64,000 nt of DNA from Armatimonadota bacterium (GCA_039811685.1 JBDHZC010000007.1:1-64000); one strand, 5' to 3'. Positions 26,422 through 33,021 are shown, numbered from the stretch's first letter. Notes: generated by a model not told the origin, from the letters alone. Program-made: numbers and translations.

Positions 26422-27063
26422 ATGAGCACTGAACAAAAGACGCCGGCCCCGGCTTCACCAAAAAAGAGCCTTCCACTTCCCGCAGTGATAGCTGTCCTGG
26501 TAGTTGCGGTAGTTGCGGTTCTTTATGTCTTTGTCTGGCCGATGATCTCCGGAGGCGGAGGGGATGAGATGGCGGGTATCCCTCCAGCAACGGCTCCTGT
26601 TCCAGCCACGCCTGAAGCGAACAGTCCGGCCACTCCGCCCACGGCCGCGACACCTGGAACTCCACCCAGCCCGACCGGGGCTGTAGCGCCCTCGCCTGGA
26701 ACAGTTCCACCCTCGACAACAGCTCCTGCAGCGCCAGGCGCCAAACCCGCACCTCAGCCTGGTTCGGCGATTACGCTATCACCCAAGGCGGGCGAGATCG
26801 TTGTTGAAGGTACAATCAAGAAGCTGTCGCCTTCTGACGGGGGATTTGTTATGCAGGTTACAGGCATCACTCTTCCCGGTCAGGGGCCTATCACGCTCAG
26901 CCCGCCGCGTGAAAAGACCGTCGTTCCAAACAGCCCTGCGGCGATAACTCAGGGGGGCCAGCCCGCAAAGCTCGGCGCACTCAAGACAGGAGCCAGAGTC
27001 TCGGCGGTTGGACCAAACAAAGGGAAAGGCACAACGCTGCGCGCTCGCCAGATCCAACTGTAG
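26422..27063 (+). CDS. Membrane-anchored Pro/Ala-rich protein with small C-terminal beta (OB/DUF5666-like) domain
   Basis: One TM segment, long PAT-rich linker, VEGTI...LKTGARV.AVG...LRARQI. Confidence 0.75.
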   Translation: MSTEQKTPAPASPKKSLPLPAVIAVLVVAVVAVLYVFVWPMISGGGGDEMAGIPPATAPVPATPEANSPATPPTAATPGTPPSPTGAVAPSPGTVPPSTTAPAAPGAKPAPQPGSAITLSPKAGEIVVEGTIKKLSPSDGGFVMQVTGITLPGQGPITLSPPREKTVVPNSPAAITQGGQPAKLGALKTGARVSAVGPNKGKGTTLRARQIQL

Positions 27064-27148
27064 GAATCCACGGCGGGTCTTTCAGCGCAGGAGTCATCCG
27101 GGCCGCTCGATTCCAGTAACTGAGCGAGCGGCCCGAATAGATGAGCTC

Positions 27149-28045
27149 TTAAGCGACCTCTGCCTCTGCCCACTGCTTGCGCAGAAACTTCACAGTCTTT
27201 GGAATTTCGACTTCCCGATCTCCGATGACCCCGCATTCCAGACTCATAAAGTCCTGGTAGCCAATGAGCTTCAAACCAGCGAAGCCGTTGCGAAAATCCC
27301 TGTTGTCCTGGTGTGGAAGGTTGCGCTTGATAGACGCGAGATGGACGTGATGAATGTAGTCGCGCGCTGAGATGAAAGCGCCCAGGTCATTGGGTTCTTC
27401 AATATACATATGGTACATATCGCCCATGCAACAGCACGCGGGATGGTTGACATCCCGGCAGATTGCAGCGGCATCCGCACACTGGCGGATCAGCCAGGTC
27501 TCACCCCGATTCAGCGGCTCCAGAAGCAGGCGCGTACCGGCCTTCTGCGCGTAATCAGCCAGATCCGGAAGCTGATCAACGATGACTTTTCGTGCGTCCA
27601 CGTGATTGAGCTTGGTCTGCCCGTTGAAAGCCGGCACGTAAATCAATCCGGTTGACCCGAGCTCGCCCGCTGCGCTGAGAATCTCTTTCATGGTGCGCAC
27701 ACACTTCTTGCGCTCCTGCTCATCGTCAGACGCCAGAGCTCCCTGAAAACCCGCACAGATGGCGCTCAGTTTCAGCGGAGAGTTGGCTACGGCTTTCTTG
27801 ATTTCGTCAACCCGGTCAGCCAGCCCACCGCCACCAACCTCAAAGCCGTCAAAGCCCCATTTCTCCATCTTCGCCAACTTCTCAGGCAGATCTTTGCCAG
27901 GGATAATACCCTCCTGGCTGGAGATCTTTTGCACGGCCTTTGTCTTTCTGGCTGCCGCTGAGACGCCGGGCGCATCCAGTGCGATAGCGGCGCCGGCGGC
28001 AACACCTGACAGCAGAAGCGTTCGTCTGTCCATCTTCATACTCAT
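27149..28045 (-). CDS. Tat-exported sugar phosphate isomerase/epimerase (AP endonuclease 2 TIM barrel)
   Basis: MDRRTLL Tat signal; LEPLNR.E, GD.YHM, HVHLA, R..P and LE metal motifs. Confidence 0.88.
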   Translation of the reverse strand: MSMKMDRRTLLLSGVAAGAAIALDAPGVSAAARKTKAVQKISSQEGIIPGKDLPEKLAKMEKWGFDGFEVGGGGLADRVDEIKKAVANSPLKLSAICAGFQGALASDDEQERKKCVRTMKEILSAAGELGSTGLIYVPAFNGQTKLNHVDARKVIVDQLPDLADYAQKAGTRLLLEPLNRGETWLIRQCADAAAICRDVNHPACCCMGDMYHMYIEEPNDLGAFISARDYIHHVHLASIKRNLPHQDNRDFRNGFAGLKLIGYQDFMSLECGVIGDREVEIPKTVKFLRKQWAEAEVA

Positions 28046-28066
28046 AGCTCCGTAACTAACACCCGC

Positions 28067-29404
28067 TCATATGAGCCTGGTGCGGCCTGGGATAGCAACG
28101 GGCGGAACTGGCAACGGGCCAAAGTCCAGGTTCGCTGGCATCAGGTCTTCCTTTGAATTGAGCGCCTGCTCCCAGGTCACTTCCTGCCCGGTGTAAGCAG
28201 CCATACGTCCCATGATCGCCGTAAGGACACTCTCCGCCACACTCTGCGCCTCGTTCAGCGGCTGGCCTGCGCGGATGCTCTTAACCAGATCAGTATGTTC
28301 CTGTACGTAAGGATTGTTGCCCGGGCCCTTGTATTCCCATCTCTTCTTCCCGCTCTGTATCCAGCCATTGGGATCGGAGACGCCTTTGGATCCTGCGACA
28401 AACTCGGAAACATTGTTGACGCAGCCGTCAATCTGACGGCTCATGCTGTGCACCCACTGCCCGCCCGGATACTGGAACTGGATGTCAAAATGGTCGAAGA
28501 TGTGTCCGTACTTCGGATCCGTGCGCACCTGGCGGCCACCCGATCCGAAAGCCTTTACGGGGTGAGCTTGCAACGCCCAGTTGACAACGTCAATATTGTG
28601 GACGTGCTGCTCGACGATGTGGTCTCCAGAAAGCCACGTGTAATAGAGCCAGTTGCGAATCTGGTACTCGGTATCGCTCCACTCCGGCTGCCTGTCATGT
28701 AGCCACAAACCGCCCTGATTCCAGTAGCACTGCGCCGCGACGATCTCTCCCAGTGCCCCGTCGTGAATGCGCTTCATCGTCTCGATGTACCCGTTTTGAT
28801 GACGCCTCTGAGTGCCGGCTACGAAGCCAAGCCCCTTCTGCTTCGCAATCCGCCCAGATTCCATCACGGAGCGGATACCTTTGGCATCTACGGCAACCGG
28901 TTTTTCTGCAAAAATGTGCTTGCCGGCGTCCACCGCGGCCCGGATGTGGATCGGACGAAATCCCGGAGGGGTCGCCAGAATCACCATGTCAACACCGCTG
29001 TCGAGCACTTTTTTGTACGCGTCAAAGCCGGTGAAGCAGCGCTCGGGTGTCACGGCGAGCTTTTGTGCAAATGCGGGGTTATTCTTTGACTGCTCCGCGA
29101 CCACGTTCTGGAGATTAGACAGTGAAGCGTCCAGTCTGTCCCTGAACAGATCTCCCATCGCGACAATCTGCACTCCCTCAGAGCCACTCATGCAGTCCCC
29201 GGCTGCACCCGTGCCGCGCCCTCCGCATCCGATCAGTCCGACTTTAATAATGTCTGAGCCACCTGCAGCGGCGCCCATCGCAAACTTGCCTGAAGACATC
29301 AGCGCCGCAGCCGCAGCGGAAGCCGCTGACACCTTGAGAAATTCGCGGCGCGAGAACTCGCGGCTGGAAGGCGAAGAAGAATCTTCAGTTGCTTTGTTTT
29401 TCAT
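28067..29404 (-). CDS. Tat-exported Gfo/Idh/MocA oxidoreductase
   Basis: SRREFLK Tat signal; GLIGCGGRG, AEKP and EQHVHNID motifs; AGGAGA RBS. Confidence 0.92.
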   Translation of the reverse strand: MKNKATEDSSSPSSREFSRREFLKVSAASAAAAALMSSGKFAMGAAAGGSDIIKVGLIGCGGRGTGAAGDCMSGSEGVQIVAMGDLFRDRLDASLSNLQNVVAEQSKNNPAFAQKLAVTPERCFTGFDAYKKVLDSGVDMVILATPPGFRPIHIRAAVDAGKHIFAEKPVAVDAKGIRSVMESGRIAKQKGLGFVAGTQRRHQNGYIETMKRIHDGALGEIVAAQCYWNQGGLWLHDRQPEWSDTEYQIRNWLYYTWLSGDHIVEQHVHNIDVVNWALQAHPVKAFGSGGRQVRTDPKYGHIFDHFDIQFQYPGGQWVHSMSRQIDGCVNNVSEFVAGSKGVSDPNGWIQSGKKRWEYKGPGNNPYVQEHTDLVKSIRAGQPLNEAQSVAESVLTAIMGRMAAYTGQEVTWEQALNSKEDLMPANLDFGPLPVPPVAIPGRTRLI

Positions 29405-29459
29405 TGTTTCTCCTGACACTGGCATCCCTATGGCGACAGTGGAAGTAGAGTCCTACGCT

Positions 29460-30266
29460 CTAGCGCTCCCTCACAATTCGGAAGCCGACGAACGGCGCAT
29501 CTGACAACCACCAGGTACTCTTGGGATTCTGAGGATCCGTCGTATTCCACGAGAATTGTTGCTTCGCCCGGGACGAGGGACTTATCTTGTCTGGGGCATC
29601 CTTATAGGAGCCACCGCATACCACCGGCTTACCGTCCAGTCCCATTGCCCATTCAGCGACATTTCCGAGGGTATCGTAGAGCCTCCACGCATTAGGCTTT
29701 TTCTTGCCGACCGCATGGGTCTTCTCCTCCCCGAACCACGAGACTTCGGACAACTTCTTCCCGGTCACTTCCTTCTCCCCCGCCCGGCAGGCATATTCCC
29801 ACTCGGCCTCTGTAGGCATTCGGTAGGTGTGTCCGGTTTTGGCGGACAGCCATTTACAGTACTCTTCCGCCCCTTTGTAGTGCATGTGCAGCGCCGGAAA
29901 GCCAGCGTGCCCCCACCCGTGGTCCGGCGCTCCGTACGGACGGCTTGGCCGCGAGATAGCATCCGCCGCAGAATTTGGCGTGTCATCATCGTCGTCGAGT
30001 TTATAGACGAAGATGTCGTAGGCGTCCCAGGTTACTTCAGTTGCGCTGACGTATAGCGGCTTGATCGGAATGGACTTTCCCCGAATGCTGATCTCGCCAG
30101 CGGGTATCGCTACCATCTCAAAGCTGACTGTGGTACCCGGGATTTTCTCTGTGTAGTTCTGCTGATCTGGCTCGGCCTGCACGTGAGTTGACCCCAGGCA
30201 GGCGCTCAGCCCGGCAGCGGCGAAGGCGATAACAGATATGTGGACCAGGTGCTTACGGTACTTCAA
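29460..30266 (-). CDS. Secreted formylglycine-generating-enzyme (SUMF1/GldK-like) domain protein
   Basis: Signal peptide; TEVTW..Y, RMPTEAEWEYACRAG, GNVAEW and GFRIV motifs; TTG start. Confidence 0.88.
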   Translation of the reverse strand: MKYRKHLVHISVIAFAAAGLSACLGSTHVQAEPDQQNYTEKIPGTTVSFEMVAIPAGEISIRGKSIPIKPLYVSATEVTWDAYDIFVYKLDDDDDTPNSAADAISRPSRPYGAPDHGWGHAGFPALHMHYKGAEEYCKWLSAKTGHTYRMPTEAEWEYACRAGEKEVTGKKLSEVSWFGEEKTHAVGKKKPNAWRLYDTLGNVAEWAMGLDGKPVVCGGSYKDAPDKISPSSRAKQQFSWNTTDPQNPKSTWWLSDAPFVGFRIVRER

Positions 30267-31242
30267 GATTGCTTTTCTACTTTCGGTGTGCTTTGGCTCG
30301 GCGATAGCGGCAGATTCGCACGCGCTCCAACGCTACCAGTATACTAAACTCCAGATGGGCGTTCAATCGCGGATTGTGCTCTACGCAAAGAACGAAAGTG
30401 AAGCCGTATCCGCTGCGCAGGCGGCATTTGCGCGAATTGATGCGCTGGAACAGATTATGAGCGACTATCGGCCTGACAGCGAATTGAGCCGCCTGAGTGA
30501 TTCAGCCGGTGGCCCCGCTGTGAGGGTGAGCCACGATCTTTTTGACGTCCTTATGTGCGCTCAGGGTATCGCAAAGGCCAGTCAGGGAGCTTTCGATGTT
30601 ACATCTGCGCCGCTGATTCAGCTGTGGCGCTCCGCGCGCAGAACACATAACCTTCCCGCCGCGACAGACCTGAAGAAAGCCAGGCAGCTGACGGGATGGC
30701 GCAAACTCAAGCTTGATGAGGCTGCGAGAACTGTGACACTTCAACAGAAGGGTATGCGGTTGGATCTGGGAGGAATCGGAAAGGGATACGCCTGTGATCA
30801 GGCGCTGCGAGCGCTGCGCTCTCGTAGGGTGGCAAGGGCACTGGTGGAGATGGGGGGAGATATGGCTCTCGGGGAGGCGCCGCCCGGGACTTCCGGATGG
30901 CGTGTAGAGATAGACCAGGCTGACGAAACGCACAGATGGCGCACACTCCGCAACTGCGGGGTATCGTCTTCTGGCGACACGCAGCAGTTTGTAGGAATTG
31001 GCGGAAAGCGCTATTCGCACGTCGTGGACCCACGCACAGGACTGGGCCTTACAGACCGCATCGCTGTCACAGTTATCGCCCCGAACGCAATGCTCTCAGA
31101 CGCACTTTCAACAGCGATCAGTGTTCTCGGAAGCGCCAGAGGCAGCCAGCTTGCCAGCCGCTACCGGGGCACTTCAACGTACATTCGAACGGCTTCTGAA
31201 GAGCGTCGGCCCGCTTCAGCCTCGTCTTCCCACCCCGAGTGA
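30238..31242 (+). CDS. apbE: FAD:protein FMN transferase
   Basis: MG, S.YRPDSELS, GAFDVT, DLGGIGKGYA.D, GGD, SSSG, SHVVDPRTG and SDALST motifs; signal peptide. Confidence 0.93.
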   Translation: MWTRCLRYFKIAFLLSVCFGSAIAADSHALQRYQYTKLQMGVQSRIVLYAKNESEAVSAAQAAFARIDALEQIMSDYRPDSELSRLSDSAGGPAVRVSHDLFDVLMCAQGIAKASQGAFDVTSAPLIQLWRSARRTHNLPAATDLKKARQLTGWRKLKLDEAARTVTLQQKGMRLDLGGIGKGYACDQALRALRSRRVARALVEMGGDMALGEAPPGTSGWRVEIDQADETHRWRTLRNCGVSSSGDTQQFVGIGGKRYSHVVDPRTGLGLTDRIAVTVIAPNAMLSDALSTAISVLGSARGSQLASRYRGTSTYIRTASEERRPASASSSHPE

Positions 31243-31338
31243 CTTGAACCAATGAGTGGCCGCGCCAGGCGTCGCAGGTTTTGTGAGCGTGCTGTAGAAT
31301 CCTAGAAGAGACTACTCTAGTTCAAAAGGACCTCTGTA

Positions 31339-33021
31339 ATGCAAGAACCCAATAAGCTGCGCAGCCGACTGACGACCGATGGCATAAGCCGCGCTCCCAA
31401 CCGCGGAATGTTGCGAGCAGTCGGATTCATGGATGACGACTTCACCCGGCCCATGGTCGGCGTCGCCTCTCTCTTCAGCGATATTACTCCGTGCAACGCC
31501 CACCTTGACCGGCTGGCGCGTAAGGGAGTAGAGGGCGTACGCGCAGCGGGCGGTGTGGCCCAGACCTACGGCGCCCCAACGGCATCGGACGGCATTATGA
31601 TGGGGCACCAGGGGATGCGATACAGTCTGGTCTCCCGGGAAGTGATCGCGGATTCGCTGGAGATTGTCTCCGGCGGGATGAATCACGACGGGATTCTTGC
31701 CTTTGGCGGATGCGACAAGAACATGCCTGGCTGTCTGATGGCTATGGCCAGGATGAATGTGCCGAGCATTTTCGTCTATGGTGGCAGCATTATGCCAGGC
31801 GTCGGAGAAGACGGAGGCGAGATTGACATCGTCTCCATCTTTGAAGCTGTTGGCAAAGAGCAAACGGGCACGCTCAGCGATGAAGAACTGCACTATGTCG
31901 AGGTGGAGGCGTGTCCGGGTCACGGCGCGTGCGGAGGCATGTACACAGCCAACACGATGAGCTCCGCCATAGAAGCGATGGGCATGTCGCTGCCTTACGA
32001 TGCGTCCAACCCGGCAGTCTCCGCCGCCAAAGAACGCCAGGCGTTTCTGGCTGGAAAGGCGCTGATCCGGCTCATTGAGAAGAATATCCGGCCGCGCGAC
32101 ATCATCACCCGCGAGTCCCTGGAGAACGCTTACACCTTTGTGCTGGCACTTGGAGGCTCCACCAACGCGATCTTGCACCTTATGGCTATCGCGCGTGAGG
32201 CGGATGTCGAGTGGACTCTGGACGATTTCGACCGGCTGGGCGACAAAGTGCCCTATCTGGCCGATCTGAAACCCGGTGGACGCTACGTTATGTTTGATGT
32301 CCACCGCATTGGCGGCACACCACCAATTCTCAAAGCTCTGCTCGACGAAGGTTATATCAACGGCAACTGCCTGACCGTTACCGGCAAGACTCTGGGCGAA
32401 AATCTGGAGTCTGTCCAGAGCGTGTTCAGACACAAGCAGGACGTTGTGAAACACTTCAGCATGCCTATGAGCCCCAAGGGACACCTCGTTATCCTGCGCG
32501 GAAACCTGGCGCCGGGAGGCTCCGTCGCGAAGGTGGCGGGACTCAAACAGACCAGCATCACTGGTCCTGCGCGCGTCTATGAAAGCGAAGAGCTTTGCTA
32601 CGACGCCATTCAGGACAGGAAGATTCAGGCAGGAGACGTTGTCGTCATCCGCAACGAAGGGCCGGTAGGCGGGCCAGGCATGCGGGAAATGCTGGCTATT
32701 ACGGCGGCGCTCGTTGGACAGGGACTCGGTGAGAGCTGTGGACTTATCACGGACGGGCGCTTCTCTGGCGGAACGCACGGACTGGTCGTGGGGCATGTGG
32801 CTCCGGAAGCCGCCGTGGGTGGCCCTATCGGGCTGCTGAAGGACGGGGATATGGTCACCATCAACGCGGCCAACAAAGAGCTCTCGGTGGCGCTCAGTGA
32901 CGAGGAGCTTGAGAAGCGCCGCAAGGCTCATCAGCCTCACCCTCCGAAGGCGACCAGAGGCGTGCTTGCGAAGTACGCAAAAACCGTCAGCTCGGCGTCC
33001 GAAGGAGCGATAACCGGATAA
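31339..33021 (+). CDS. ilvD: Dihydroxy-acid dehydratase
   Basis: [35 protein letters not shown] and TDGRFSGG motifs. Confidence 0.97.

Follow-up and report, generated by a model that had tools for sequence, protein, structure and literature searches.

A subfamily of FGE-fold proteins, encoded with ApbE and exported Gfo/Idh/MocA dehydrogenases, as candidate flavinylated redox carriers

ApbE, the flavin adenine dinucleotide (FAD):protein flavin mononucleotide (FMN) transferase, has defined substrates among FMN_bind proteins (NqrC, RnfG, NosR and PplA) and in the families DUF2271 and DUF3570 (Meheust et al. 2021, PMC8238504). These substrates are exported, carry a short loop motif running from an Asp to a Ser/Thr, have apbE adjoining and are linked to membrane or cytochrome electron carriers; for DUF2271, a fusion of ApbE with its substrate has been reported. 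About 4% of the genomes surveyed contain an orphan apbE with no known substrate (PMC8238504). Here we describe a locus in a 64,000-nucleotide stretch of DNA from an Armatimonadota bacterium (GCA_039811685.1, JBDHZC010000007.1:1-64000; hereafter the window), in which a gene for a putatively secreted ApbE abuts, head-to-head and divergently, an operon encoding an FGE-sulfatase-domain protein that reads as a lipoprotein (the FGE protein), a Gfo/Idh/MocA dehydrogenase (the Gfo dehydrogenase) and a xylose-isomerase-like TIM barrel. With export read from the N-terminal sequence, the characteristics listed for the known substrates, including the fusion and the setting of orphan-apbE genomes without FMN_bind, recur in the subfamily to which the FGE protein belongs. 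From the comparisons presented below, we consider it likely that a loop of this protein is flavinylated by ApbE and that it has a redox-relay role.

The subfamily also differs from the known substrates. Their fold is unrelated to the FGE/PvdO C-type-lectin-like fold (PF03781) of the window protein; their motif ends in [ST]-G-A-[ST], whereas x-[RH]-P-[ST] predominates in the FGE subfamily; and its partner, unlike theirs, is a dehydrogenase of the type that uses nicotinamide adenine dinucleotide (phosphate), NAD(P), and is exported by twin-arginine translocation (Tat). On the dehydrogenase side, the closest described systems are LacABC, ThuAB with a cytochrome c, and BT2158 of Bacteroides thetaiotaomicron (Liu et al. 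2021, PMC8121099), which share periplasmic sugar oxidation by a Tat-exported Gfo/Idh/MocA-type enzyme. As at our locus, TIM-barrel or 3-keto-sugar enzymes are found in the clusters of these glycoside 3-dehydrogenase systems, and the same question arises of how the bound cofactor is re-oxidized (PMC8121099). The BT2156-BT2160 cluster encodes a Tat Gfo-type dehydrogenase and lacks an FGE-fold gene (PMC8121099, bioRxiv 626366); BT2160 was considered as a cytochrome/FGE protein and rejected, the papers giving it as a SusR-type regulator. The Gfo-type enzymes of PMC8121099 are described as working by a ping-pong reaction with a second sugar, not with an external flavin carrier. FGE, sulfatase and Gfo are not mentioned in the main text of PMC8238504 or PMC11334425, and the gene-cluster table of PMC8238504 may list the family. 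Full-text literature searches, with subscription journals outside their coverage, returned no paper linking ApbE or flavinylation to the FGE fold or to Gfo/Idh/MocA enzymes.

An initial annotation of the window had pointed to a D-A-I-S-R-P-S motif in the FGE protein, and translation of the minus strand places this motif at residues 102–108. We compared the 120 closest homologues of the protein, which are 48–76% identical to it and many of which are named Armatimonadota or Fimbriimonadales by their source. P107 is invariant (120/120), position 108 is Ser in 111 and Thr in 9, D102 and A103 are kept in 115 and 117, respectively, and position 106 is Arg in 94 and His in 25, giving the consensus D-A-x-[SA]-[RH]-P-[ST]-[KR]-P-Y-G. 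A pattern D-x-x-x-[RHK]-P-[ST] was found in 104 of 120 longer homologues, and D-A-x-[SA]-[RHA]-P-S in 29 of 30 loci from the organism's own phylum. Judged from these alignments, the occurrence of a DAISRPS-type motif is far beyond chance. The acidic linker (DDDDDTPNSAA) highlighted in the same annotation does precede the motif but is not conserved, positions 92–101 varying among the 120 homologues. In an AlphaFold2 model, the motif loop is a low-confidence segment (block means of 64 and 59 for residues 91–110). Strong conservation in a predicted flexible loop is what would be expected of a site of modification or recognition.

The canonical ApbE motif is D-x-x-[ST]-G-A-[ST] (PMC12052999). The window motif has the Asp and both Ser residues of this pattern (at position 4 and at the end) but carries R-P instead of G-A. 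To relate the two forms, we used 79 loci encoding relatives, taken from named genomes, of which 43 (L011–L053) encode members of the subfamily and 36 encode other FGE-domain proteins, and aligned the window protein with 46 subfamily proteins from the former. At the column of DAISRPS, three Bacteroidales-type members have DGITGAT (L036), DGISGAT (L052) and DAIVGAT (L039), the first two being perfect canonical ApbE sites. Seven others (L022, L035, L045, L046, L048, L049 and L053) have intermediates of the form x-G-P-T at the same column, and most members have x-[RHKQ]-P-[ST]. The last position of the motif is Ser or Thr in 45 of the 46 rows, the exception being a frameshifted fragment. In the lineage of the L036 protein, sampled as its 120 closest homologues (72–100% identical, all with four CxxCH), the canonical form predominates as well: of the 117 that matched the pattern, 112 have D-x-x-[ST]-G-A-T and 5 have G-P-T. 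The aligned subfamily thus forms a continuum between the textbook flavinylation site and the window variant, all at a single homologous position of the loop. Motif changes of G to A or of A to V leave about 50% flavinylation (PMC12052999), so that variation in these two residues is tolerated.

ApbE was found adjacent to the FGE gene in 18 of the 43 subfamily loci outside the phylum versus none of the 36 other-FGE loci (tblastn; Fisher p = 4e-6); a Pfam scan of 15 loci confirmed ApbE in 10. The ApbE-adjacent loci come from Planctomycetota, Bacteroidota, Acidobacteriota, Gemmatimonadota, Verrucomicrobiota and Actinomycetota, and, depending on the lineage, apbE is found upstream in divergent orientation, immediately downstream, or behind the Gfo gene. 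Such varied gene order and orientation argues for selection on the linkage rather than for one inherited layout. The initial annotation had proposed that the motif should be conserved in connection with apbE synteny, and both sides of this proposal were borne out by the conservation in close homologues and by the 18/43 versus 0/36 contrast. Adjacency to apbE is not universal. By motif class, adjacency outside the phylum is 0/3 for G-A, 2/7 for G-P and 16/32 for other x-P motifs (x not G). ApbE is encoded elsewhere in the genome in all five genomes with cytochrome-fused members (see below) that were checked; we considered that a housekeeping ApbE suffices for the non-adjacent canonical-motif members, and set the idea aside with numbers too small to decide it. 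In one Phycisphaerales locus (L011 4670–8206, minus strand), the FGE-adjacent ApbE lies in a single 1178-aa frame with PF06439 and an alpha-L-fucosidase domain, which may be a true fusion or a longest-frame artefact in G+C-rich DNA.

Within the phylum, we sampled 201 genomes and called the subfamily at E <= 1e-30. The subfamily is present in 91 of them and ApbE in 133; ApbE is present in all 91 subfamily-positive genomes versus 42 of the 110 subfamily-negative ones. In at least 74 of the 91, apbE and the FGE gene share a contig and lie no more than 6 kb apart, and in at least 67 the distance is 500 bp or less; both are lower bounds, as adjacency was counted on 150 of 250 ApbE matches. Of the 74 pairs counted, 66 are divergent. 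FMN_bind is encoded by 10 of the 201 genomes, none of them subfamily-positive. Of the 133 ApbE-positive genomes, 33 lack both the FGE subfamily and FMN_bind, and further ApbE substrates are therefore likely in the phylum.

The window ApbE has a signal-peptide-like N terminus, by reading, and it keeps the conserved FAD, Mg and catalytic stretches of its family: GIGKG, SSSGD, YSHVVDPRTG and SDALSTA align with the solved FMN transferases 7esa and 5mgy. It is not of the E. coli type, scoring 144.7 bits against a cut-off of 498 with the equivalog NF007774. In a maximum-likelihood tree built by a quick search on 34 ApbE sequences, from which 14 near-redundant own-phylum rows were left out, the window ApbE, seven of seven own-phylum adjacent ApbEs and 16 of 17 adjacent ApbEs from other phyla form a clade (Shimodaira-Hasegawa-like approximate likelihood-ratio test, SH-aLRT, 96). 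Outside it fall the two other, signal-less, ApbEs of the genome and seven non-adjacent Bacteroidales ApbEs. This suggests that a distinct ApbE clade travels with the FGE subfamily across phyla. In one metagenome gene call (P0204), the two partners are joined in a single 730-aa chain, with ApbE at residues 42–312, an FGE domain at 427–670 and DAITRPT at 501.

A Gfo orthologue (31–60% identity) is adjacent in 29 of the 43 subfamily loci versus none of the 36 control loci, and the Pfam scan of 15 loci placed it directly downstream in 13 of them and, in L021, upstream. At least 90% of 109 homologues share the twin arginines, R26 and R27, of the Gfo dehydrogenase. Inositol 2-dehydrogenase and glycoside 3-dehydrogenase are the best family matches of this enzyme, each far under cut-off; with 38.5 bits against a cut-off of 750, it is not a member of the BT2158-type family NF058561. 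In nine members (L035, L036, L039, L045, L046, L048, L049, L052 and L053), an N-terminal, membrane-anchored NapC/NirT domain (PF03264, four CxxCH) is fused to the FGE-like domain. PSCyt1 (planctomycete cytochrome c) is fused in the Verrucomicrobiota/Bryobacteraceae members L018, L021, L025 and L042, and L016 has one CxxCH. One or two CxxCH are found in 41 of the 120 longer homologues, one of which was checked and has a cytochrome c' match. In the operon of L045, a ResB/CcsA haem-attachment gene follows. The cytochrome fusions, taken together with a near-constant adjacent Gfo orthologue, fit an electron-relay role.

We also predicted the complex of the Gfo dehydrogenase (residues 48–452) with the FGE protein (residues 31–268). 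The interaction prediction score from aligned errors (ipSAE) was 0.36 (runs 0.36, 0.35 and 0.52), and none of three controls scored above 0.00. At least 90% of contacts are common to the runs, and the partner has a predicted local distance difference test (pLDDT) of 87 or more. Of 157 solved complexes, 116 come up to the mark applied, as do 2 of 215 mismatched pairs; those that pass with an ipSAE of at most 0.60 comprise only 18 of the solved complexes and both passing mismatches. Contact between the two proteins is thus weakly supported by co-folding.

We propose that the products of the operon form a module that dehydrogenates a sugar (or polyol/glycoside) in the periplasm, and that its redox partner would be a new kind of ApbE substrate. 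The Gfo/Idh/MocA enzyme would fold with NAD(P) in the cytoplasm and then be exported by Tat, while the FGE-fold lipoprotein would be exported unfolded, with the motif on its flexible, strongly conserved loop. In the periplasm, the adjacent ApbE would flavinylate Ser108 of the lipoprotein. The tethered FMN could then take a hydride from dehydrogenase-bound NAD(P)H, and haem or quinone carriers would receive the electrons in turn. Many relatives would have this acceptor built in, as the fused NapC/NirT tetrahaem quinol-dehydrogenase or planctomycete cytochrome c domain; in the window organism it would have to be a separate protein. The keto-sugar formed is probably processed further by the exported TIM-barrel enzyme. 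The most likely reading is that FMN is attached to Ser108 and acts as the relay for electrons of the NAD(P)H bound in the dehydrogenase. The initial annotation had likewise proposed a non-canonical flavinylated FMN carrier that re-oxidizes the exported dehydrogenase. The comparative evidence (canonical motif at the same column, ApbE clade, fusion, co-occurrence and cytochrome fusions) favors this proposal, from which we infer the covalent FMN, the modified residue, the transfer of electrons with its direction and partners, and the substrate.

The conserved loop could instead be a structural, metal-binding or docking element that is not flavinylated, with ApbE supplying non-covalent FMN, in trafficking or as an FAD pyrophosphatase, or modifying another protein. 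ApbE relatives with FAD pyrophosphatase activity have been described (PMC4767422). The R-P of the window motif would agree with such a role, as would the absence of ApbE from the available flanks in 25 of the 43 subfamily loci of other phyla. However, an exact canonical D-G-I-[ST]-G-A-T in relatives is unexpected of a structural loop, and the near-constant terminal Ser/Thr (45/46 rows) and the ApbE-FGE fusion of P0204 also speak against it. As for another protein being modified, no Ser/Thr column conserved at 90% or more was found in the Gfo dehydrogenase (109 homologues), which is therefore unlikely to be the ApbE target itself. Nor was another known substrate family found in the genome, which is 97% complete and has three ApbE genes: FMN_bind, NqrB/RnfD and DUF2271 gave no match, and a blank search for DUF3570 is uninformative, as its control matched in no genome. 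The FGE protein in turn belongs, by Pfam, to no established ApbE-substrate domain (FMN_bind, NqrB/RnfD, DUF2271 and DUF3570). The initial annotation had reported no canonical substrate nearby; in agreement with this, none of the window open reading frames (ORFs) of at least 80 aa contains D-x-x-[ST]-G-[AS]-[ST]. On balance, we regard this explanation as unlikely.

Among six-frame ORFs of the whole genome there are 27 matches to the canonical motif, only one of them on the contig of the window (C7, at 124370), outside the window. The only convincing exported match is a 316-aa protein (C1:713385-714335, minus strand; DAATGAT, in the context V-V-D-A-A-T-G-A-T-V-S) with a C-terminal Gly-rich membrane anchor and no apbE linkage, which may be a chance match or another ApbE substrate.

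A second explanation accepts the lipoprotein as a partner of the dehydrogenase and gives it no redox function: it would anchor or mature the enzyme, as a tether or chaperone, or itself be an enzyme acting on the sugar product. The protein does read as a lipoprotein, with an N-terminal lipoprotein signal and an L-S-A-C lipobox (by reading), and the co-fold speaks, weakly, for contact only. PF03781 is the only Pfam family it matches, and it is the sole member of its own subfamily in the genome. Among solved structures, its top sequence match is PorK/GldK, and the FGE fold includes such non-redox scaffolds. No NCBIfam model comes near its cut-off (PvdO NF051459, 59.2 versus 500; GldK, 48 versus 350). 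Foldseek searches with the AlphaFold2 model (pLDDT 87.8) returned PvdO and FGE at template-modelling (TM) scores of 0.54–0.65 (human FGE, TM 0.54, E 4e-10). The window protein therefore has the fold of PvdO, FGE (SUMF1) and PorK/GldK, and, like PvdO, it would be periplasmic and tied to an oxidation step. It is set apart from all three by the signature D-A-x-S-R-P-S-K-P-Y-G and by a second subfamily signature, W..DPQ.PKS.WW, near the C terminus; the solved PvdO, FGE and PorK do not align over its motif loop.

An enzymatic function of the FGE kind is opposed by the cysteines. The catalytic copper-binding Cys pair of FGE lies in the C-terminal part, after the GGS stretch. Unlike FGE (SUMF1), the window protein has no such pair after this stretch; no Cys follows C217, and the C217 column itself falls short of 90% conservation. 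Electron transfer is moreover indicated by the repeated fusions to two unrelated kinds of c-type cytochrome domain, by the haem-attachment gene in one operon (L045) and by the linkage to ApbE. We think a non-redox role still less probable than a structural loop. Coincidental adjacency of apbE combined with a chance motif resemblance can be dismissed as very improbable: nothing beyond the non-canonical motif favors it, and it is contradicted by the adjacency in several gene orders (18/43 versus 0/36) and by the own-phylum pattern (ApbE in 91/91 subfamily-positive genomes, adjacent in at least 74/91).

Returning to flavinylation of the FGE protein and its role as a relay, several observations weigh against both. 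The window motif lacks two of the positions that define the canonical class (R-P for G-A) and falls outside it. We know of no experiment in which ApbE acts on x-P-[ST]. Position 105 varies among Ser, Thr and Ala, with Ala accounting for 23 of the 120 closest homologues. The canonical sites sampled around the L036 protein (112/117) all come from a single lineage and count as one evolutionary observation. Among the loci with no adjacent ApbE, several (L012, L023, L033, L047, L050 and L051) have full 8-kb flanks. The own-phylum counts, clean as their pattern is, come from related genomes and so overstate the significance, and the fusion stands as one gene call. The ApbE tree has long branches and a midpoint root, and the adjacent Pedobacter ApbE (L015) groups outside the clade, with ordinary Bacteroidota ApbEs. 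On the side of electron transfer, the weakness of the predicted Gfo-FGE contact counts in the same direction. There is also no CxxCH in window ORFs of at least 80 aa, the window FGE protein itself being without a haem domain. Two NapC-like ORFs elsewhere in the genome (C2:629409-629888 and C6:169003-169452; E ~3e-5) were considered as acceptors and rejected, being distant and showing no evidence of partnership.

The genes of the locus are listed in Table 1. The initial annotation had described an operon of a Tat TIM barrel, a Tat Gfo/Idh/MocA dehydrogenase and an FGE protein back-to-back with apbE, with which the ORFs and Pfam families agree. The three minus-strand genes are separated by gaps of 21 and 34 nt, the TIM-barrel gene being the last of the operon. 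The longest ORFs of apbE and of the FGE-protein gene overlap at their 5' ends by 29 nt (30238–30266), and so at least one of the two starts is uncertain. A promoter and terminator scan of 26900–31500 gave counts no higher than in shuffles; the single promoter-like match for the operon (30366–30338, minus strand) falls within the apbE frame.

Table 1. Features of the apbE locus, with positions counted from the first nucleotide of the window
Feature	Position	Strand	Details
Xylose-isomerase-like TIM barrel	27149-28045	-	298 aa; PF01261, 119.3 bits
Gfo/Idh/MocA dehydrogenase	28067-29425	-	452 aa; PF01408, PF22725; TAT_signal PF10518, 26.6 bits
FGE-sulfatase-domain lipoprotein	29460-30266	-	268 aa; PF03781, 80.8 bits
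Candidate ApbE site D102-A-I-S-R-P-S108 in the FGE protein	29943-29963	-	translation checked
Ser108 codon, proposed FMN attachment residue	29943-29945	-	
Gene for probably secreted ApbE-family FAD:protein FMN transferase	30238-31242	+	334 aa; PF02424, 253 bits

The TIM-barrel protein has a twin-arginine leader (RRTLLL, read from the sequence). Its top NCBIfam matches, IolO (5-keto-L-gluconate epimerase; 98.9 bits versus a cut-off of 300) and psicose 3-epimerase, are both far under cut-off. TIM-barrel genes are found in only some related loci (L013, L020 and L045 by Pfam; L045 and L046 at 45–47% identity). As a part of the module the TIM barrel is thus present in the window operon and optional elsewhere. 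Beyond the core genes, the neighbors in related loci include glycoside hydrolases, SusD/TonB receptors and TIM barrels, and L011 encodes a 3-keto-disaccharide-hydrolase domain. The genomic setting of the module is a carbohydrate context.

The two further ApbEs of the genome stand in other surroundings. The second belongs to a further sugar-redox operon (C1:328021-332540; L004 6021–10540, minus strand) of ThuA, ApbE, a Tat Gfo/Idh/MocA protein and DUF6807. Its ThuA has an N-terminal membrane or signal segment and the stretch F-V-G-I-H-G-A-T, and no canonical motif was seen in the proteins of this operon. The cytoplasmic ApbE encoded here may modify a Tat substrate before export. The third is followed, in the region C9:71202-73521 (L005 8202–10521), by a 444-aa secreted protein without a Pfam family. 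A search for Gfo-FGE fusions among long Gfo homologues gave four candidates, all rejected: three (P0244, P0256 and P0362) are close homologues of the Gfo dehydrogenase fused C-terminally to a caspase-like Peptidase_C14 domain, and P0329 has an N terminus without assignment.

Taken together, the comparisons make it slightly more likely than not that the FGE-fold subfamily is a widespread class of ApbE substrates, the fourth, with members in at least seven phyla, most of them carrying an [RH]-P-[ST] site that would be served by its own ApbE clade. With a Tat-exported Gfo/Idh/MocA dehydrogenase, and often with NapC/NirT or a c-type cytochrome, it would form an undescribed respiratory entry point, in which tethered FMN re-oxidizes enzyme-bound NAD(P)H and feeds haems or quinones.

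If this is correct, the orphan apbE would be explained across the phylum, in which 91 of the 133 ApbE-positive genomes carry the subfamily and none of these 91 has FMN_bind. The accepted recognition motif of ApbE would widen to x-P-[ST], which would matter for ApbE-based protein tagging, and the FGE fold would gain a role as a flavin carrier. Tat-exported Gfo/Idh/MocA enzymes are abundant in Planctomycetota, Verrucomicrobiota, Bacteroidota and their relatives, and their periplasmic re-oxidation and respiratory link are not settled. A flavinylated FGE-fold partner would provide a testable answer to how exported dehydrogenases with a locked-in cofactor turn over without a second sugar substrate.

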